A stretch of DNA of 64,000 nucleotides from Escherichia coli (GTDB lineage: Bacteria > Pseudomonadota > Gammaproteobacteria > Enterobacterales > Enterobacteriaceae): the NCBI RefSeq assembly GCF_001677475.2, contig NZ_CP015229.1; one strand, 5' to 3'. Made by a program: the position numbers and the translations under genes. A model generated the notes under the pieces. That model saw only the letters and a program-made list of their open reading frames with translations. It made no database searches and had not been told where the DNA came from. This document shows, piece by piece, positions 34,345-47,279 of the stretch (within the stretch, counting starts at the first letter, position 1; every line of letters begins with the position of its first letter).

Positions 34345-35085
34345 TTAAAAACGCCAGCTCACGCCGGTGACAAAGGTAAAACTCTCATTACGATCAATCA
34401 TCGGGCTGTCGGTAATCTCTTCCGGCAGCTCGCTGTATCCTGCGCTCGCCATCAATACGACGTGCTCTCCTATCGGGTATTTTGCCGTCAGGCTGACATA
34501 GGGCACCCAGGAATCCTGCGCGGAATAACTTGCCAGACCGCTACGACGGGACTCACTCTCTGAAATGCCATAGTAATAGTCACTGAAATTCTCGTCATAA
34601 TAGAGAACGCCCAGCGCAGGTGTCAGCGACAGACGACCTATCTGCATTTTGTGGAATACCGATAGCTCCCCCACCCAGCCGTTGCTGTTATCCAGAACGT
34701 CCGCAGCTGCAGAGGCTTTCACGGTTCCCCAACGCTCGTGGTGATACCAGGCAACCCCCGCCATAGCCGTACTATCACGCTTATCAAGCTGTTGCATGGC
34801 ATAATCGTCATTATCGGCAGGGTCAAATTCCAGCGGCATCCAGGATGCGGTCAGGCTAAGTTCATTTTTTTCACTTTGCGACAGAATAAAACCTAACGTG
34901 GTCTGACGAACATAAAAAGAATCACCTTCATAACTAATCAGGGGAATTGCCTTTGTATTTTCATTATAACCGCGATAAGGCGATTCATTATAAGCCGCAC
35001 CGGCACCAATGGATAATTCAGAAGCAGTTGCGCTTGCCATAAAAGGCAACGCAAATAACGCCACAATATTGCGGTTAATTAACAT
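34345..35085 (-). CDS. yiaT: Outer-membrane protein YiaT (MipA/OmpV family)
   Basis: 246 aa; signal peptide (ALFALPFMASATASE); beta-strand-rich; C-terminal ...GVSWRF with terminal Phe typical of outer-membrane beta-barrels. Confidence 0.85.
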   Translation of the reverse strand: MLINRNIVALFALPFMASATASELSIGAGAAYNESPYRGYNENTKAIPLISYEGDSFYVRQTTLGFILSQSEKNELSLTASWMPLEFDPADNDDYAMQQLDKRDSTAMAGVAWYHHERWGTVKASAAADVLDNSNGWVGELSVFHKMQIGRLSLTPALGVLYYDENFSDYYYGISESESRRSGLASYSAQDSWVPYVSLTAKYPIGEHVVLMASAGYSELPEEITDSPMIDRNESFTFVTGVSWRF

Positions 35086-35208
35086 GTCCGGTATTCCATT
35101 TTAAAATAAGATAAAAAAGAGTCGGCATAGTAATGCTTACAATTTCTCCGGTGCAAGATTCATATTTATATAGTAATATATAAAATTATATATAATTGGG
35201 CTGTTGCG

Positions 35209-36183
35209 ATGACAAAATTACAACTTAAGTACCGGGAGTTAAAAATTATCTCGGTAATCGCTGCCAGTGAAAATATCAGCCATGCCGCGACTGTACTTGG
35301 CATCGCACAGGCCAACGTCAGCAAATATCTTGCTGATTTTGAATCAAAAGTAGGTTTAAAAGTCTTTGACCGAACCACCCGGCAACTGATGCTCACACCT
35401 TTTGGTACCGCGCTGTTGCCATACATCAATGACATGCTGGACAGAAACGAGCAGCTTAATAATTTTATTGCAGATTATAAGCATGAGAAACGTGGTCGGG
35501 TCACTATCTATGCACCAACCGGCATAATTACCTATTTATCCAAACATGTAATCGATAAAATTAAAGATATCGGTGATATCACCTTATCGCTAAAAACCTG
35601 CAATCTTGAGCGTAATGCCTTTTATGAAGGCGTCGAATTTCCCGATGATTGTGATGTTTTAATCAGCTACGCTCCACCAAAAGATGAATCGCTGGTTGCC
35701 AGTTTTATTACGCAATATGTCGTAACCGCTTATGCCAGCCAGCGCTATCTTGAGAAACATCACATTAGCCGTCCTGACGAACTCGAACATCACTCCTGTA
35801 TTTTGATCGACTCAATGATGATCGACGACGCGAATATCTGGCGCTTCAACGTCTCCGGGAGTAAAGAGGTGCGGGATTATCGTGTGAAGGGAAATTACGT
35901 TTGCGACAACACGCAATCGGCGCTGGAGCTGGCACGAAATCACCTGGGGATTGTGTTTGCGCCAGACAAAAGTGTGCAGAGCGATCTGCAAGACGGCACG
36001 CTGGTGCCCTGCTTTCAGCACCCGTATGAATGGTGGCTGGATCTGGTGGCTATCTTCCGTAAACGGGAATACCAGCCCTGGCGGGTCCAGTATGTGCTGG
36101 ATGAAATGCTGCGTGAAATTCGCCACCAGCTTGCTCAGTCGCAGCAACTGCGGCCTGAACAAGCGGCGGAAAGCGAAGATTAA
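35209..36183 (+). CDS. yiaU: LysR-family transcriptional regulator YiaU
   Basis: 324 aa; N-terminal LysR HTH (...[37 protein letters not shown]). Confidence 0.85.
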
Positions 36184-37316
36184 TGATCGAGATAAAGGTA
36201 ATGCACCCAGCTGGTCATGCGTAATAACACTTTGCGCATCACCGAGACATGGCTGAAATGATCGGAGTAGACCGCCACCTGGGCGTAAATACCGTCTGGT
36301 AAAGCGCTCAAATCAGTATGCTCATCCAGTTCAATGGTCGCGATAACGCCATCTGAACCCGGCGCTGTGTTTAACGTCTGTAAGGTACCGGTCGACTGAT
36401 AAGCTCCACCGGGAACAGCTGGACTAATGGCTGCCAGCTTACCGCTGAATACCTTACCTGGCAGAGCATTAAACACCACTTCCGCATCGTCACCAGGAGC
36501 CAGTCGCAGCAAGGAGTTCTGACGGAACTGCGCCACGATTTGTCGTTTCTGATCGGGTATAAACACCATCACCGGACGTAGCGGCAGCGACGCGGCATAG
36601 GTACCCGGACGAATCAGGACCTGGGCCACGTAACCATCGCTCGGCGCACGCACTATCGTCTGCTCAAGGTTATATTTTGCTTCCGCGAGCTGCGCTTTCA
36701 GGCTGGCGATTAGAGAATGTTCACCCAACACCAGGCTATCCAGCTGGCTCTGGACCTGTTTTTGTTCCGCCGCCGATGACTTTACGGAGGCTTCCTGCGC
36801 CAGATAATTTTGCCGCGCCACATCAATATCGCGTTCTGAAAACGGGTTTACTTTCGCCTGGCTGCCGCGTGCGTAACGCTGATACTCTTTAGCGAATTTA
36901 TCCCGCGTGGCCTTTGCCTGCTGAGTATTCGCCGCCATCTCATCTAACTCTGCGCCCAACGCCCGCTGTTTATGTTCTGCGGTAACGATATCCGCCATCA
37001 GCCGATCCACCCGCGCCTGATAACGCGTCGGGTCCAGTCGAAAAAGCACCTCGCCTTTTTTAATCAGCGTATTTTTCTTATCCGTCACTTCAATCACCAC
37101 GCCTGTCACCTGTGGGACAACAGGGATGGAAATAACCGCTTTTTGCGCTTTAAAGGTATACGGATGGTTATAGTTCATTAACAGAATTAAACCGCTGACA
37201 ATAAATATTCCCCCCAGGGCCGCTGTGGGAATGGTCCATTTATTTACAGGAATTTTGAAGATCTTAAACATTGCCCATGCGAAAGCCACATAGGTCAAGA
37301 TAATCAGTAAATCCAT
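36180..37316 (-). CDS. yiaV: HlyD-family membrane-fusion-type protein YiaV (no adjacent transporter)
   Basis: 378 aa; N-terminal transmembrane helix, long coiled-coil middle, C-terminal beta domain. Roughly three-quarters identical (by eye) to the ORF at 45242..46378 (yibH). 3' end overlaps yiaU by 4 nt, convergently. Confidence 0.85.
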
Positions 37317-37321
37317 AAGTA

Positions 37322-37645
37322 TTACTCGGCAGAAGAGGATTTGATGTCGGCGAGCTGTTTCTCCAGCCCGGCAATACGCTGTTGTAGTTGCACAACGGAG
37401 GAGTCATGGTTTTGCATTCCCCATCCCCGCTCCGGGCGGTAAAGCGTGGCCCAAATCCACAAAAATGGCCAGATAACATGCAGCGTAAAAAGACTCACCC
37501 AACCAGCGACATGAATGGCGTCGGCATGAGGATGATTACGTTTTTTAGCAATCAGGTAGGGAATATCATGTAAAATAATAATCCCATAGAATATCACCAG
37601 AAATACAAAAATAAGCACTCCCAGTGCAAAATAATCCAGGAACAT
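37322..37645 (-). CDS. yiaW: Small inner-membrane protein YiaW (DUF3302-type, two transmembrane helices plus C-terminal coiled coil)
   Basis: Start at ATG 37645 ([45 protein letters not shown]...), 107 aa, Shine-Dalgarno GAGGGA; stop lies 5 nt from the yiaV start; paralog of yibI. Confidence 0.8.
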
Positions 37646-38075
37646 ATTTCCCTCAGAGAATATAAAAAAGAACAATTAACGCATATTATGAAATGCCATG
37701 ATGCAGTGCAATTTCCTTATTTATATAACGACATATTGTTTTTTATATACTTTCTGAAGTGTGCTGCCTGGCTTTTCAGCAGGTCGAGGCTTATCATATT
37801 GAAATAATGGAACTATTGACAAAACTAATGAATAACTCCAGTAAAACATCCACAGTACAGATAAAGCGTATTAAACCTTCAATTATCTACCGTTTATTGC
37901 TGATTGGCCTCGGAACACCAATGGTGATTTACGGCCTGGTTCGCCCGCTCACCATCGAAACGCGAGATTAAACTCCTGGCAAAACACGCCCCAGAAACGC
38001 ACTTCTGTTGGCGTAGTCTGGGTTATTGCGCACGTAGGTTTAAAACGTAAATTGTAACAAAGTGCGCTTTGTTTA

Positions 38076-41232: not shown

Positions 41233-43077
41233 TTATTTTTCGGGAAATAATAATGCATCGCGCAATAAATGATCATTTCCACGACGCCGCGTAAAGCCAA
41301 TGCGGTCAAAATATTCCAGAATCTGAATTGCCAGCTTTCGGCCTACACCTAAGCGATCGCGGAAATCCGCCGCGCAGGTTGAGCCACATTCCTGATCGAG
41401 ATCGCGGATCATATTGGCAAATTCAACAATCCGATCATTACGGTAATAACGATCTTTGACGATCGCCGTAATTATCCCCTGCTGTGCCGCCTGGCGTAGC
41501 GTCAAGCGCATTGCCTGCTCGTCGGTTCCCGTCTCTTTTGCCAGGTCACGCACCCACCACGGCTCGTCACCAAACAGCGGCTCTGCTTTTTGCCAGATGG
41601 CCTGCTGCTCTTCGCTGAAGCCCGCTTTGTGATCCGGCAGATGCAGCCAGCCGTGATGACTGAGGATGTCGCCGCTTTCGCGCATCTTTTCAATCAGCAA
41701 CAGTACCAGCGCTTCATCTTCCATTGGCAACGCCATACGTCGCAGACGTTCGCGCCCAGGACCAGGTTCATCGCGATGTTGCTCATGATAAGTCGCTAAT
41801 GTGTCGAGAATTTTCCGCTGCCAGCGGGCGGCAACCGGCGCATTCAACAAGCTATAACCAGCCTGAATATAGCCAGGCTGTTGCAATAGTTCGCGCATCC
41901 CTTCGCCGTTGAGCTGCCGTGCCCAGGCGAAATCGGCAAGGTTAACCGCGCCGCGTTCCAGATGAACAGATAACGCATCGGCATCGCTCTGCGCCCGTGC
42001 CAGTGACGCCAGCCATTGCAGATATTCCGGCTTACGTTTACCGCGACGCGGCGGGTTAAGCATCACCACACGCGCCCCCGCCAGCGTGTTGCGGGCCGAG
42101 ATATCGCGCAGCACTAAGCGATCGTTATCCGCCAGCCACAGCGGCGTGTCGAACACCAGCTCGGCAAGGTTATCTTCCAGCAGCGAAACGCGCCCCGTAA
42201 CATGGCTGGCGGCGTGGTGAATATGCAGCGGCTGCCACTGGGTCAGCGGTGTATGAGTTTGAAGCTCGACAATCACCCGTGTGAACGGCTCTGGCGGCAC
42301 ATCGGCAAGCAGCCAGTCGCCACGGTTAATCTGCTCTTTTTCCGCATCACCCGCGATGTTAAGTGCGATACGCTGCCCGGCATGGGCGGTTTCTGTTGGC
42401 TGGTTTTGCGCATGCAGCGCACGTACACGCATCGATTTATTTACACCAGTCAGCCATAGTGAATCGCCTACCTTCACTTCCCCGCTTAACGCCGTACCGG
42501 TGACGACCAGCCCGGCACCTTTTACAGTAAATGCGCGGTCGATCGCGAGGCGGAAACTATGTTGGCTGGCGTGTTCACGTTCTGGTAACTGAAGCAGATG
42601 CTCGCGCAGGGCATCAATTCCCCGACCTTCGGTTGCTGCGGTGATAAACAGTTTTGCCTCAGCAAAACCGTATTCCCGCAGCACCTCCTTTACCTGGCGT
42701 TCAACCTCATCAACACGCGCTTCGTCCACGCGATCGGCTTTGGTCAGCGCCACTGTCAGCATCGGGTTACCAGTCAGCTGCAAAATCGCCAGATGCTCAC
42801 GGGTCTGTGCCATCACGCCGTCATCGCACGCCACCACCAACAGCGCGTGATCGATACCACCAACGCCCGCCAGCATGTTGGAAAGAAACTTTTCATGACC
42901 GGGAACGTCGATAAAACCAGGCACGCGGCCATCCGGCTGCGGCCAGTAGGCATAACCGAGATCGATGGTCATGCCGCGCTTTTTTTCTTCCGGCAGACGG
43001 TCGGCATTTACGCCAGTAATCGCCTGCAATAAGGTTGTTTTGCCGTGGTCAACGTGTCCGGCAGTCGCAATAATCAT
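41233..43077 (-). CDS. selB: Selenocysteine-specific translation elongation factor
   Basis: 614 aa; GTPase G1 motif GHVDHGKT at the N-terminus; C-terminal extension; 4-nt overlap with selA. Confidence 0.95.
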
Positions 43078-44465
43078 TTCAACAACATCTCCAAAAACCG
43101 TTGCTCATCTTCAAGGCAGCGTAAATCCAGCCACAATCGTCCGTCATAAATACGACCAATCACCGGCACTGGCAATTCACGCCAGCGGGCGGCTAATGAC
43201 TCAAGGTGGCTACCGCGTCCATCATGGGGTGTAAACGTTAATGCCGCGCTCGGCAGGCGATCAACCGGCAGCGAACCACTGCCAATCTGCGAAAGACATG
43301 GCATAACCTGGACTGCAAACTCCGCGCCGTAATGTGCGGCAAGGGGAGCCTGTAAACGTTGTGCCTGGATTTGAATGACCTCTGCGCTGCGGGTAAGCAG
43401 GCGCAGGGTCGGTAATTTTTCACTCAGCGCCTCAGGGTGTAAATAAAGACGCAGCGTGGCTTCCAGCGCCGCGAGGGTCATTTTATCCGCGCGTAATGCA
43501 CGCTTCAGTGGATGGCTTTGCAGGCGGGCGATCATCTCTTTTTTACCAACGATAATCCCTGCCTGCGGCCCGCCTAACAACTTGTCGCCGGAGAAGCTCA
43601 CCAGGCTGACGCCCGCCGCAATCAACTCCTGCGGCATCGGCTCTTTCGGCAAACCGTACTGGCTAAGATCGACCAGCGAACCACTGCCTAAATCAGTCAC
43701 TACGGGAACATCCAGTTCTTTGCCAAGCGCCACCAGTTCAGCTTCATCTATCGCTTTGGTGAACCCCTGAATGCTGTAGTTACTGGTATGTACTTTCATC
43801 AACAGTGCGGTATTTTCATTCACCGCCTGACGATAATCATTCGCGTGCGTGCGGTTGGTGGTCCCCACTTCGTGCAGGGTACAGCCAGCCTGACGCATGA
43901 CGTCAGGGATACGAAACGCGCCGCCGATCTCCACCAGTTCGCCACGAGACACCACCACCTCTTTACCGCTGGCAGTGGCCGCCAACATCAATAACACCGC
44001 CGCCGCATTGTTATTAACGATACAGGCATCTTCCGCCCCCGTAATACGGCACAGCAGCTGCGCCAGCGCACGATCGCGATGTCCGCGTCCGGCGTCGTCC
44101 AGATCGTACTCCAGCGTCACCGGCGAACGCATAGCCTGCGCAACGGCTTCCACCGCGGCTTCTGCCTGTAAAGCTCGCCCAAGATTGGTATGCAGCACGG
44201 TTCCCGTCAGGTTGATCACCGGACGCAGCGCGCTCTGCGCTTCTTTCGTCAACCGGGCATCGACTTCTTGCGCCCAGTTCTCACACCACGCGGGCAGCGT
44301 CTGGCTGTCACGAATCACTTCTCGCGCTTCGTCAAGCATCTGACGCAGCAATTCCACCACGCGGGTGTGACCATAAGTATCACGCAAAGAAAGGAAGGAG
44401 CTATCGCGCAATAAGCGATCAATAGCCGGAAGTTGACTATAGAGGGAACGCGTTTCGGTTGTCAT
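43074..44465 (-). CDS. selA: L-seryl-tRNA(Sec) selenium transferase
   Basis: 463-aa ORF recognised as SelA ([21 protein letters not shown]...); candidate PLP-lysine region [13 protein letters not shown]. Confidence 0.95.
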
Positions 44466-44562: not shown

Positions 44563-45171
44563 TCAAGCCTTTGGCGGTTCGGTGCGAGCAAAACTTTCGC
44601 GGCTAAACAGGTTTTCGACCAGTTTGACTAAGTGTGGGCGGTCGACACACCAGCCTGGCGCAACGCGGCGGAAATTGAGATATCCGACGGCACAGGCAAT
44701 GGCGATAGTCGCCAGATTGACCGTATCGGTTTTGAGTGTGCCATCGACCAGATATCCTTCCAGCACATCCAGACTGCGGTTGATTTTCTCCCGCTGGCGT
44801 AACAATTCATCTTCAGACTGCTGCGCCGCCGGACGCGCCTGTTCGCGCACCGACACCAGCCCGGCATCCATAATACCGTCGGCCAGCGCCTCAATTTTAC
44901 GCACTCGCAACGACTCCAGCGGATCGCGCGGCAACATCGCCGGAGCGACATTCATTAATTCAATATATTCGGCAATGATCGGCGAATCAAACCAACATTC
45001 GCCCTCTTCGGTCACCAGCACCGGCACTTTCCCTAACGGGTTAAATTGCGCCACGCCGTTGTCCGCGTTATAGGGCAGCTCATTAATAAATTCGAAAGTT
45101 ATGCCCTTTTCTAACAACAGAATAGAAAGTTTGCGTACAAACGGGCTGGTGTAGCTACCGACGAGTTTCAT
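44563..45171 (-). CDS. yibF: Glutathione S-transferase-family protein YibF
   Basis: 202 aa; N-terminal thioredoxin-like GST domain ([28 protein letters not shown]). Confidence 0.88.
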
Positions 45172-45241
45172 GCCGAGTCCTTTGTGCGAGGAAAAATATC
45201 AGTATGGCTCAGGCTCGCGCAAAACACAGGTGACATAAGTC

Positions 45242-46378
45242 TCAATGATCCAAATAAAGATAATGCATCCAACTGGTCATTCTCAGCAGCACCTTCCGCA
45301 TCACCGAAACATGGCTGAAATGGTCGGAGTAAACTGCTACCTGGGCGTAAATGCCGTCGGGTAAGGCATCGATATCATCGTTGGGGTCCAGTTCAATGGT
45401 TCCCAGCACACCGTCCGTGCCGGGCACGACCGTTAATGATTGCAATACCCCCTGCGCCTGATAAGAACCGCCTGGCACGACAGGTAAAATACTGGTCAGT
45501 TTGCCGTGGAACACCTGCCCAGGTAGCGCGTTAAACACCACTTCCGCATCATCGCCGGGTTTCAGACGTAACAGCGAGTTCTGCCGAAATTGGGCGACAA
45601 TTTGCCGTTTTTGCTCGGGGATGAAAACCATCACCGGACGTAGCGGCAAGGCAGCTGCGTATGTACCTGGGCGGATCAGTACCTGAGTAACGTAGCCATT
45701 GCTTGGTGCGCGAATGACAGTCTGCTCAAGGTTATATTTTGCTTCAGTAAGTTGCGCTCTTAAGCTCACAATCTGCGACTGCTCGCCGTTAACCATACTG
45801 TCGAGCTGGCTCTGGATCTGCGCCTGCTCCGCCACCGAGCCTTTCACCAGCGCGTCCTGCGCGAGGAAGTTTTGCCGCGCATCGTCGATGTCACGTTCCG
45901 AGAACGGATTCACCGCCGCCTGGCTACCTTTCAGGTAACGTTGATAATTTTTAAACAGACGGTCGCGCTCCGCTGAAACCTGGGTGGTGTTGGCCTGCGC
46001 TTCAGTGAGCTGGGCGCGCAGCGTCTTTATATTATGCGTCGCCGTCATCAGGTCAGCCTGAAGTCTGTCAACTCGCGCCTGGTAACGAACCGGGTCGAGT
46101 TTAAAAAGCACCTCGCCCTTTTGAATAAGCTGATTATTCTTGTCAGTGACTTCAGTAACAATTCCCGTCACCTGTGGCGTGATGGGGATCGCTATCACTG
46201 CCTTTTGCGCGGTAAAAGTGTAAGGATGGTTGTAGTTCATCAATAAAATCAAACCACTCACCAGAAATACGCCTCCCAACGCCGCCGTCGCCAGCGTCCA
46301 CTGATTCACCGGAATGCGGAAGATTTTAAATACTGCCCATGCCAGCGCCACGTAAGTTAAAACAATTAACAGATCCAT
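45242..46378 (-). CDS. yibH: HlyD-family membrane-fusion-type protein YibH (paralog of YiaV)
   Basis: 378 aa; same architecture as yiaV; the N-terminal region and the last ~30 residues are near-identical to YiaV (differing at one position in the final 30, V/M). Confidence 0.85.
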
Positions 46379-46380
46379 AA

Positions 46381-46743
46381 TCAGATCTCCGGGAACGTGG
46401 AATAGTCACTCTTTTTTTCAGCTGCAAGTTGGTGCTCCAGCCGGGAAATACGGTCAGAAAGTGCGGCGATTTCCGGGTCAGTCACTTTCTCCTGCGACGC
46501 AACATGTGACTGCATGCCCCAGCCGCGCTCCGGTTGATAGAGCGTCGCCCAGATCCACAGAAACGGCCAGATAACATGCAGAGTAAACAGGCTAACCCAG
46601 CCCGCCGTATGAATAGCGTCGGCATGGGGATGGTTGCGCTTTTTGGCAATCAAATAAGGGATGTCATGTATCGCGATGATTCCATAAAAAATCACCAGAA
46701 AGACGAAGATCAGCACTCCCAACGCGAAGTAGTTTAGAAACAT
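46381..46743 (-). CDS. yibI: Small inner-membrane protein YibI (DUF3302-type, paralog of YiaW)
   Basis: 120 aa; N-terminal region near-identical to YiaW, C-terminal tail divergent; stop is 2 nt from the yibH start; GAGG Shine-Dalgarno. Confidence 0.85.
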
Positions 46744-47279
46744 ATCTGCCTCGGATTCACGCTTATCAGTGTTGTTTTTTGGCTGGCAGCCGGAAGGGAG
46801 TCAGGCTGATACTTTGACATTAATCTGCGTTTGCCAATCTCGCCATCACACCGAAGGATAATTTTAAAAGGCGATGAGTTGCTCAGTTACAAAACTGTCT
46901 TAAGGCAAAGTCAGAACATGTTGCAGATCACATCAGGTGAATTACCGAAGAAAATATCTTGTGATTCAGATCACAAAAATCTAACAAACCATCAAAACAA
47001 AAATGTGACATTACTCACATTTAAATGCCATTTTTAGCGAAAATCGCCGCCTTGTTGCTTTTTTACACAAGCGTTTTGTGATGAACGTCACGCCAATTAC
47101 CTCTCTACCCCCTATATTTATGTGACTGATATCACACAAAAGACCGTCGACTGGACAGTTAACCGATTCAGTGCCAGATTTCGCAGTATCTACAAGGTCC
47201 GGCTACCTCTGCCGCCACATTAACAAAAAACCTCGGGCTTCCAGCCTGCGCGACAGCAAACATAAGAAGGGGTGTTTTT
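46744..47279 (+). promoter_or_regulatory. mtlADR promoter/operator region
   Basis: 536-bp AT-rich non-coding region upstream of mtlA; known to carry the sigma70 promoter with CRP and MtlR operators. Individual sites were not mapped here. Confidence 0.5.

Follow-up and report, generated by a model that had tools for sequence, protein, structure and literature searches.

The yibI-yibH operon of Escherichia coli and its paralogue yiaW-yiaV: layout, conservation and origin of a DUF3302-adaptor gene pair

Within the analysed window, i.e., a stretch of 64,000 nucleotides of E. coli contig NZ_CP015229.1, positions 45242-46743 hold the known yibI-yibH operon, which is a paralogue of the neighbouring yiaW-yiaV operon (Table 1), the genes as well as their paralogy being already annotated. 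As described in the initial annotation, the ORF layout reveals both cassettes to be alike in gene order and strand and to lie on either side of the aldB-yiaY-selB-selA-yibF block. Their separation had been given as about 8 kb; here the gap amounts to 7.6 kb and the start-to-start distance to approximately 9.1 kb, a distance which varies by strain, since in K-12 the rhsA element sits between yibF and yibH (PMC11551758). Likewise, a 2-nt spacer had been ascribed to both cassettes, which holds for yibI-yibH (yibI stop codon TGA at 46381-46383, yibH start codon ATG at 46376-46378), whereas yiaW and yiaV are separated by 5 nt. Judged from the sequence, translation of yibH would be coupled to that of yibI. 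For yiaW, the TTG-extended ORF reaches position 37675, and the 3' end of yiaV overlaps the convergent yiaU by 4 nt. The gene order mtlA, yibI-yibH-yibF-selA-selB, with mtlA divergent, is kept across the Enterobacteriaceae.

Table 1. Features of the two cassettes in window coordinates.
Feature	Position	Strand	Length	Description	Basis
yibI	46381..46743	-	120 aa	small inner-membrane DUF3302 protein	ORF, PF11742, hydropathy, RefSeq
yibH	45242..46378	-	378 aa	HlyD/EmrA-like periplasmic adaptor (membrane fusion protein)	ORF, Pfam, NCBIfam, AF2, Foldseek
yiaW	37322..37645	-	107 aa (from ATG)	yibI paralogue	ORF, alignment, RefSeq
yiaV	36180..37316	-	378 aa	yibH paralogue	ORF, ungapped alignment, RefSeq
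DUF3302 core of YibI	46510..46743	-	residues 1-78	carries the family motif; repeat family D1	
YibH C-terminal signature ALPDG...H.S[VI]...	45245..45367	-	residues 338-378	amphipathic helix past the last beta-strand; repeat family D2	
YibH N-terminal hydrophobic pair	46229..46378	-	residues 1-24 and 26-50	basic loop between the segments	hydropathy, model, conservation
GGAG Shine-Dalgarno-like element for yibH	46387..46390	-		within the yibI 3' end; GGAGATCTGATTATG	read directly
yibI/mtlA divergent intergenic region	46744..47279	.		holds the yibIH promoter	layout, K-12 mapping (PMC3946193)

Genomic SELEX with K-12 mapped a constitutive sigma-70 promoter of yibIH to the yibI/mtlA spacer, and promoters were mapped for both the yibIH and the yiaWV operons (PMC3946193). 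A study of the NO response included yibIH in its set of tested candidates (PMC5320621); when the region upstream of yibI was scanned for an NsrR operator, the best site agreed with a consensus at only 13 of 22 positions, which is not convincing. Rfam returned no match over 34-48 kb of the window, and a literature search found no functional study of yibI, yibH, yiaW or yiaV.

Residues 3-78 of YibI match positions 1-76 of the 77 positions of Pfam PF11742 (DUF3302; E = 3.3e-41), and hydropathy analysis identified two hydrophobic segments followed by a hydrophilic tail with a short amphipathic helix. Only 5 of the 78 N-terminal residues differ between YibI and YiaW, and the first 80 codons share 76.7% DNA identity (pS 0.86, pN 0.055), which bears out the earlier statement of near-identical small-protein N-termini on diverged DNA. 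No other part of the cassette is as constrained as the DUF3302 core, and strong purifying selection on it is seen between the Escherichia and C. amalonaticus orthologues (dN 0.011-0.014, dS 1.2-1.4). The tails evolve fast even between orthologues (dN 0.18-0.34), although the short amphipathic helix motif is kept in all of them; YiaW possesses a shorter tail of the ancestral type. Hence the difference between the YibI and YiaW tails, which had been suggested to reflect partner or signal specificity, says little on specificity, and this suggestion is poorly supported. When YibI was searched against the PDB, solely designed coiled coils were matched, via the tail.

The adaptors YibH and YiaV, both 378 aa in length, align without gaps at 76.5% protein and 69% DNA identity. 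Residues 338-378 contain a single difference and an identical run of 33 aa, with the underlying DNA being 83% identical (pS 0.69). The near-identity of the adaptor C-termini, as initially reported, is thus real, but the similarity extends over the whole length of the proteins. An independent check of both conserved blocks came from a repeat finder, which returned 36182-36305 versus 45244-45367 (83%) and 37413-37657 versus 46511-46755 (78%), i.e., exactly the adaptor C-terminus and the small-protein core. Uniform divergence along the proteins, named at the outset as an outcome which would refute the proposal, was not observed, as the differences per 21-residue bin range from 1 to 11 (permutation p = 1e-4). 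What varies is, in the adaptor, the surface of the long alpha-hairpin arms together with one loop region of the barrel and, in the small protein, the linker of the tail. Besides architecture and lengths, the two cassettes share the C-terminal motif and the DUF3302 core; they differ in their flanking genes and promoter region, and yiaW-yiaV carries ancestral residues in the membrane loop and in the core.

Across the whole gene, yibH and yiaV show a saturated pS of 0.775 and a dN of 0.18. The longest exact runs common to both cassettes amount to 26 nt and 17 nt, their upstream regions are unrelated, and paralogues from one genome (pS 0.775, 0.726) are no closer than those from different genomes (pS 0.744, 0.783). 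Saturated synonymous sites and the lack of conversion tracts together indicate that the split is ancient and that the copies were held by purifying selection, so that the initially proposed old divergence under purifying selection, with no recent gene conversion, stands. Recurrent gene conversion, i.e., concerted evolution rather than selection on each copy, as the cause of the alike cassette ends is accordingly a very improbable explanation: the cassettes are indeed close to each other and in direct orientation, and mosaic YiaV/YibH proteins occur in public metagenome assemblies, but these mosaics are found as pairs reciprocal to each other on 1.2-1.8 kb contigs, which is the signature of assembly chimeras, the synonymous sites within the blocks are at or near saturation, and distant single-copy cassettes conserve these blocks as well. 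Neither long identical tracts nor low pS within the blocks nor closeness of same-genome copies, as expected for homogenised paralogues, was found in these cassettes. Since the split, each copy would have evolved on its own under purifying selection, with no gene conversion between the two.

Comparison with the wider family places the conserved blocks in a different context. Also in homologues of 35-44% identity, the adaptor is best conserved in its C-terminal motif and its N-terminal membrane region, with residues 1-40 showing the highest conservation to distant homologues (identity 0.56-0.57), and the DUF3302 core retains 65-79% identity in cassettes with adaptors of only 35-42% identity. As conservation of these blocks reaches into distant homologues, the pattern seen for YibH/YiaV and YibI/YiaW is the general constraint profile of the family, and the protein ends of both pairs are near-identical because these parts are almost invariant family-wide. 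The proposal that the conserved segments are interaction surfaces is therefore compatible with the data as far as interaction or functional surfaces in general are concerned, but their conservation is not peculiar to this pair. The two genes form a module: in 8 of 8 distant homologues a small gene lies immediately upstream of the adaptor gene, and in seven it yields a DUF3302 hit, the eighth (109 aa) being cut by the contig end and without domain record. The spacing of the two genes is 0-3 nt or an overlap in six of these cassettes and 63 nt in L084, while the remaining neighbours differ in each of the eight contexts, with locus L089 having an ABC gene that lies divergently on the other strand. 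Natural DUF3302-adaptor fusions were not found among 367 family members, the longer of which possess longer hairpins and the same N-terminal double-segment architecture. Across taxa, residues 24, 25, 46 and 70 of the small protein shift between ancestral and derived states together with residues 21, 26, 29 and 30 of the adaptor membrane loop. This sequence covariation is suggestive of both proteins being part of one complex, and the coordinated substitutions may reflect a single evolutionary event.

How E. coli came to possess two cassettes is less clear-cut than their paralogy. Of 5426 E. coli genomes, RefSeq annotates yibI in 5424, as 'DUF3302 domain-containing protein', and yiaV in 3807, which corresponds to 70% as compared to more than 99.9% for yibIH and renders yiaWV accessory. 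Whilst YibH-type cassettes with mtlA synteny are found across the Enterobacteriaceae, the YiaV clade occurs in Escherichia/Shigella, Citrobacter and Pseudocitrobacter only. In a neighbour-joining tree computed without the chimeric YiaV/YibH sequences, the backbone of which is weak, the YiaV clade was monophyletic in 100% of the bootstraps and sister to the Escherichia yibH of the same genome in 0 of 200. YiaV furthermore lacks about half of the yibH-lineage changes common to Escherichia, Citrobacter, Enterobacter, Leclercia and Lelliottia. The old duplication initially put forward is consequently retained as ancient paralogy, but in view of the bootstrap result and the patchy distribution, duplication in place can be regarded only as a possible origin. 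A dating of the split by dS is not workable, because already the Escherichia and Citrobacter orthologues are close to saturated at synonymous sites (pS about 0.70); the copies would have split at least as early as the core Enterobacteriaceae genera radiated. With a Yersinia/Serratia-type outgroup yiaV appeared to evolve about 3x faster (40 versus 13 changes), whereas no yiaV excess was seen with distant outgroups (7 versus 9).

Considering these data, it is conceivable, if somewhat short of an even chance, that yiaWV was acquired horizontally in an already diverged state and entered the aldB/yiaU junction in the ancestor of Escherichia, Citrobacter and Pseudocitrobacter, whereby homology to the resident cassette may have aided the insertion. 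Next to the restricted distribution of the clade, this reading is favoured by Lelliottia, in which aldB abuts yiaU-yiaT with no trace of yiaWV, by the joint lack of yiaWV, yiaU and yiaT in about 30% of complete E. coli genomes, and by toxin-antitoxin, Fic and restriction genes occupying the place in genomes without yiaWV. YiaV moreover falls outside all Enterobacterales YibH-type cassettes in the neighbour-joining tree while distant outgroups give no rate excess, Pseudocitrobacter and E. coli share 89-93% identity in YiaV and only 81-82% in YibH, and H-NS binding is listed for the promoter region of yiaWV (PMC3946193). However, same-strand paralogues at this distance are what a local duplication is expected to yield and would be improbable by chance, and long-branch attraction could explain the outside placement. 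YiaV and YibH are equally diverged between Escherichia and C. amalonaticus (yibH dN 0.036, yiaV dN 0.034), which implies joint inheritance of the two from that split onwards; the base composition is unremarkable and gives no hint of a foreign origin, and no donor lineage was found.

Regarding the adaptor itself, YibH matches the Pfam domains CusB_dom_1, HlyD_D23 and Biotin_lipoyl_2 and possesses the lipoyl and beta-barrel domains flanking a coiled-coil alpha-hairpin that mark the HlyD-type membrane fusion protein family (TC 8.A.1). The inner-membrane anchor belonging to this family definition is predicted from hydropathy, with two hydrophobic segments at residues 1-24 and 26-50; as the AlphaFold model likewise contains two helices there, they probably form a two-helix membrane hairpin. 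This model was computed for a single fused chain joining YibI to YibH by a linker, on the basis of 17 paired rows and 37 rows with the adaptor only, and its adaptor part is confident (pLDDT above 90 for the periplasmic part of YibH), whereas YibI reached a pLDDT of only 58-76. The C-terminal helix, residues 505-521 of the fused model, has a pLDDT of about 90 and coincides with a peak of the hydrophobic moment. EmrA of the MFS-type tripartite efflux system EmrAB-TolC (PDB 8zal/8zar) was identified as top match by sequence (E = 1.7e-11) and by fold, the best Foldseek hit of the YibH model being 8zal_A (E = 1.4e-20, TM 0.69), with MacA, AcrA and MexA also found. Both proteins have an N-terminal membrane anchor, lipoyl and beta-barrel domains and a long alpha-hairpin and lack a lipid anchor, but their sequence identity is only 16-20%, YibH has two N-terminal hydrophobic segments where EmrA has one, and YibH adds the conserved C-terminal amphipathic helix. 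The top NCBIfam matches of YibH, namely EmrA/EmrK (TIGR00998, 113.5 bits) and MdtN (NF007785, 110.9 bits), remained far below the respective cut-offs of 390.8 and 376, YiaV scoring similarly, and AaeA was matched as well (E = 5e-21). Reading of the YibH sequence gave no obvious canonical RLS tip motif, and against the PADLOC defence models YibH gave no more than coiled-coil noise (E about 0.005) and YibI no match.

The operon further differs from that of EmrA in lacking an emrB-like transporter gene and in encoding a DUF3302 protein as partner. More generally, a transporter encoded alongside, as is typical of TC 8.A.1 adaptors, was found neither in the two cassettes nor in 80 related Enterobacterales loci, and none recurs in the eight distant contexts. 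The E. coli operons aaeX-aaeA-aaeB and ydhI-ydhJ-ydhK encode a small membrane protein, an adaptor and a FUSC-type transporter. Like yibIH, they place the gene of a small two-helix membrane protein directly before that of an EmrA/AaeA-like adaptor; in yibIH, however, no FUSC gene follows and the small protein belongs to DUF3302 instead of DUF1656.

Taken together, the observations are well explained, with good though not full confidence, by yibIH and yiaWV being anciently diverged copies of a conserved DUF3302-adaptor module, which is proposed to operate as follows. The DUF3302 protein and the membrane elements of the adaptor would form the inner-membrane part of a single complex, from which the adaptor, probably as an EmrA-like oligomer, would extend its alpha-hairpin (approximately 57 residues per arm) over the periplasm. 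The hairpin would there contact an outer-membrane channel such as TolC, and a linked classical transporter would not be needed. A membrane complex reaching such a channel is our best guess for yibIH.

The lack of a linked pump can be read in a second way, namely that YibH and YiaV are orphan adaptors serving unlinked MFS, ABC or FUSC transporters, with the DUF3302 protein being merely a small accessory comparable to AcrZ in AcrZ-AcrB or AaeX in AaeX-AaeAB. This possibility is rather unlikely. It draws on the nearest characterised relatives EmrA, MdtN and AaeA, each of which pairs with a dedicated transporter (NCBIfam names; PDB 8zar), and on the gene arrangement shared with AaeX-AaeA and YdhI-YdhJ. 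The lack of any recurrent transporter gene beside the module argues against it, as do the adaptor's unusual conserved double membrane segment and C-terminal helix. Conservation is, moreover, much stronger in the small protein than in the adaptor, whereas a dispensable accessory would be expected to show the reverse.

Going beyond the single complex preferred here, the DUF3302-adaptor pair might be a self-contained envelope-spanning system in which the histidine-rich, near-invariant DUF3302 protein and the adaptor's membrane and C-terminal helices constitute a minimal inner-membrane translocator of a new kind, which would replace an RND, ABC, MFS or FUSC pump and perhaps carry a cation or small metabolite. 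We regard this as doubtful, a speculation with much the smaller part of the probability on its side. If it holds true, E. coli keeps two insulated versions of such a translocator, with partner specificity being set by the co-varying residues of the small protein and of the adaptor.

The finding as such is real but ordinary and adds little, given that the y-gene annotation already shows the paralogy of both operons. What is worth keeping is a strictly conserved two-gene module with a small membrane protein much more constrained than its adaptor and no linked pump gene, and with yibIH/yiaWV a model organism offers a tractable way into a class of such adaptor systems. As for reported phenotypes, yibI is induced in urine, where a UPEC yibI mutant is less fit (PMC5404293), and an IS1 insertion in yiaW arose during adaptation to macrophages (PMC5495878).

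Judged from their sequences, yibIH and yiaWV are paralogous operons that diverged long ago and on which purifying selection acts strongly, and the ends of the encoded proteins carry signature motifs found across the family. YibH and YiaV align without gaps over their whole length with 289 identical residues (76.5%) at a DNA identity of 69.3%, which means that the similarity is not limited to the protein ends. Within residues 338-378 the adaptors differ at one position, and YibI and YiaW differ at five of their first 78 residues, past which they are divergent and also show an indel of 8 residues and an extension of 5. An independent repeat search recovered exactly the two blocks named earlier for the cassettes and their near-identical protein ends, and the expected segment-wise divergence was found as well, the adaptor differences per 21-residue bin numbering between 1 and 11 (p = 1e-4 by permutation). 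The supposedly equal 2-nt spacers were measured as 2 nt in yibI-yibH, where a GGAG lies inside the yibI end, versus 5 nt in yiaW-yiaV. For yiaW, the mechanical ORF uses a TTG upstream of the ATG (117 aa versus 107 aa), whereby the alignment of all orthologues to the ATG (MFL(D/N)YFALG) supports the latter as start.

Features of the two cassettes and their surroundings in the window
Feature	Coordinates	Strand	Remark
yiaT-yiaW block	34345..37675		variably present in E. coli
yiaT	34345..35085	-	ORF layout
yiaU	35209..36183	+	LysR-type regulator, convergent with yiaV
yiaU/yiaV overlap	36180..36183		3' ends, 4 nt
yiaV	36180..37316	-	adaptor, 378 aa
Repeat block 1	36182-36305 / 45244-45367		83%
yiaW	37322..37645	-	small DUF3302 gene
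YiaW core	37412..37645		DUF3302 core
Repeat block 2	37413-37657 / 46511-46755		78%
yiaW TTG extension	37646..37675		30 nt upstream of ATG
aldB, yiaY, selB, selA, yibF		-	between yiaW and yibH, in that order
yibH	45242..46378	-	adaptor, 378 aa
yibI	46381..46743	-	small DUF3302 gene
YibI core	46510..46743		DUF3302 core
NsrR-like site (rejected)	47012..47034	-	yibI-mtlA intergenic
mtlA		+	beyond yibI

When 1.84 billion cluster representatives were searched, YibH and YiaV fell into the same 50% cluster, the full-length relatives that come next being 36-44% identical. In these distant adaptors conservation is highest in residues 1-40 and in the C-terminal motif H.[SA][IVL][IVM]R[KR][IV]LLRM.SW..Y[VIL][YF]..H, and the DUF3302 core is 65-79% identical where the adaptors are 35-42% identical. 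Because the same blocks are conserved in distant relatives, the near-identical ends reflect general constraints of the family, not a property special to this pair. The differing small-protein tails, earlier read as a possible sign of specificity, evolve fast in every lineage (Escherichia versus C. amalonaticus: tail dN 0.18-0.34, core dN 0.011-0.014), whereby a short L..L..R[IV]..LE..L helix is kept in all of them. The feature is real and its earlier description accurate, its explanation is ordinary, and existing annotation covers both the genes and their paralogy. Core loop and second helix of DUF3302 carry a near-invariant polar set (H26, D27, R35, N36, H37, P38, H39, D41, H45, H56 and several tryptophans) that is kept even in distant cassettes, a hint that it may bind metal or protons and not serve structure alone.

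More noteworthy than the paralogy is the DUF3302-adaptor module itself, which is uncharacterised. In all eight distant homologues whose contigs were read, a small gene immediately precedes the adaptor gene, with a DUF3302 match in seven (the eighth, of 109 aa and cut by the contig end, has no domain record). Six loci have the two genes overlapping or 0-3 nt apart, and in one (L084) the distance is 63 nt. What is shown is a conserved module of two closely spaced genes, which encode an EmrA-like adaptor and a far more constrained small membrane protein; natural fusions of the two were not found. YibH matches HlyD-type adaptor domains, its nearest named relatives being EmrA/EmrK, MdtN and AaeA, all far below curated cut-offs. 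EmrA is its best solved relative by sequence, and EmrA of the EmrAB-TolC pump also holds the top Foldseek rank (E = 1.4e-20, TM 0.69). Modelled by AlphaFold as one chain, YibI-linker-YibH (mean pLDDT 80, periplasmic part >90) shows two N-terminal helices, hairpin arms of ~57 residues and a C-terminal helix. Hydropathy identified hydrophobic segments 1-24 and 26-50 with a basic loop between them in YibH, and two hydrophobic segments separated by a basic, histidine-rich loop in the small protein. As the most likely mode of action, it is suggested that the small protein, together with the membrane elements of the adaptor, would form one inner-membrane assembly, from which the adaptor would extend to an outer-membrane channel, a classical pump not being needed. 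No recurring pump or outer-membrane gene lies beside the eight distant cassettes, whose other neighbours differ each time; the main rival assumes that the adaptors use unlinked transporters, with the small protein as an accessory. Small-protein residues 24, 25, 46 and 70 and adaptor residues 21, 26, 29 and 30 are jointly in an ancestral state in YiaWV, Klebsiella oxytoca, Trabulsiella and the outgroups, and jointly in a derived one in YibIH of Escherichia, Citrobacter, Enterobacter and others. These may be real specificity determinants, although one evolutionary event could explain the pattern.

A functional study of yibI, yibH, yiaW or yiaV was not found in the literature. It was reported that yibI is induced in urine, its mutant in uropathogenic E. 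coli being outcompeted (competitive index 0.33) and adhering less (PMC5404293), and that yibIH, one of 26 candidates (genes or operons) examined for NO scavenging in E. coli CFT073, was not required (PMC5320621). An IS1 insertion in yiaW of a macrophage-adapted clone had no phenotype when reconstructed (PMC5495878), and, as related in a citing paper, yiaW deletion reportedly raises Ca2+-mediated transformation (PMC12844161). Further, yibH serves as neutral integration site (PMC5852967), yiaV appears under TC 8.A.1.1.4 as an adaptor not yet characterised (PMC10971958), and genomic SELEX mapped the promoters of yibIH and yiaWV, the latter in an H-NS-bound region (PMC3946193).

Nei-Gojobori divergence between the paralogues amounts to pS 0.775 (saturated) and dN 0.18 for the whole adaptor genes, pS 0.69 and pN 0.031 for their last 41 codons, and pS 0.86 and pN 0.055 for the first 80 codons of the small genes. 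The paralogues share exact nucleotide runs of at most 26 nt and 17 nt, and their upstream regions show no relationship. This argues against concerted evolution, as does the finding that same-genome paralogues (pS 0.775, 0.726) are no closer than cross-genome ones (0.744, 0.783). Since the orthologue divergences between the window and C. amalonaticus match (yibH: dN 0.036, pS 0.695; yiaV: dN 0.034, pS 0.703), both copies existed as distinct genes before that split and have evolved at equal rate since. In neighbour-joining trees with bootstrap, from which four mosaic sequences were removed, the YiaV clade was monophyletic (100%), and none of the 200 replicates joined it as sister to the YibH group of Escherichia. 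At most 1% of replicates nested it within the core YibH group, and in the point estimate it lies outside all Enterobacterales YibH-type cassettes, all of these jointly splitting from the distant homologues with 100% support. YiaV also lacks 5-6 yibH-lineage substitutions common to Escherichia, Citrobacter, Enterobacter, Leclercia and Lelliottia. Because the rate tests disagree by outgroup (Yersinia/Serratia-type: 40 changes in YiaV, 13 in YibH, p 2e-4; distant homologues: 7 and 9, not significant), YiaV would either have arisen inside the Enterobacteriaceae and accelerated or have branched earlier, the split being old in both cases.

The removed sequences, the database proteins P0106, P0119, P0133 and P0117, are sharp-breakpoint mosaics of YiaV-type and YibH-type segments, form reciprocal pairs (P0106/P0119 and P0133/P0117) and all stem from metagenome contigs of 1.2-1.8 kb; most likely they are assembly chimeras between the paralogues. 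Such mosaics can mislead trees and clustering, and distorted a tree that included them.

Scanning one genome per species gave 80 YibH-type loci of 81-99% identity. The order mtlA, yibI-yibH-yibF-selA-selB is kept in Citrobacter, Enterobacter, Klebsiella, Raoultella, Kluyvera, Leclercia, Lelliottia, Yokenella, Trabulsiella and others, and one cassette each was found in other contexts in Buttiauxella, Serratia, Yersinia, Edaphovirga and on a Pantoea plasmid. YiaV orthologues (at least 83% identity) occur only in Escherichia/Shigella, many Citrobacter species and Pseudocitrobacter, with C. amalonaticus having the two-cassette layout of the window. Among 5,426 complete E. coli genomes, yibIH was matched by megablast in 5,424 (annotated as 'yibH: HlyD family secretion protein' and 'yibI: DUF3302 domain-containing protein') and yiaWV in 3,807; about 30%, e.g., ATCC 25922, lack the yiaT-yiaW block and carry HicAB toxin-antitoxin, Fic or type I restriction genes beside aldB instead. 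The split is old, with saturated pS and no sign of recent conversion, and may have been either a duplication in place with losses afterwards, favoured by the close same-strand spacing of the cassettes, or a later insertion of an already diverged copy, favoured by the patchy distribution and accessory behaviour of yiaWV.

The best E. coli records among the 5,426 genomes reach 96.7-98.1% identity to the window (tested for 36100-37800, 41233-44465 and 45100-46900), which also lacks rhsA between yibF and yibH, unlike K-12, where this element is present (PMC11551758); for these reasons the sequence probably belongs to a divergent Escherichia lineage and not to K-12. Its yibH differs from one E. coli allele by pS 0.27, and a YibH-type protein of Escherichia sp. 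MOD1-EC7003 (L001) is 99% identical. In the yibI-mtlA intergenic region, AAAATGGCATTTAAATGTGAGTA on the minus strand was considered as an NsrR-like site; it is weakly palindrome-like and, although among the best 0.07% of positions in the window, unconvincing, with 13 of 22 positions matching an NsrR consensus.

The 4-nt yiaU/yiaV overlap is also found in C. amalonaticus (L082). In Lelliottia, aldB adjoins yiaU-yiaT directly, without yiaWV and yiaY (yiaU being next to aldB in L091). The Fe-type alcohol dehydrogenase gene yiaY is present in Escherichia, Citrobacter and Kluyvera and missing in Enterobacter, Lelliottia and Leclercia, where selB is followed by aldB (L010, L020, L021, L027, L029, L030, L038-L041). 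Pseudocitrobacter YiaV is 89-93% identical to that of E. coli, its YibH only 81-82%. Both genes of the mtlA-linked cassette are of the derived state in R. planticola (L028) and of the ancestral state in R. terrigena (L048) and K. oxytoca (L055); such differences between close relatives suggest whole-cassette replacement by recombination.
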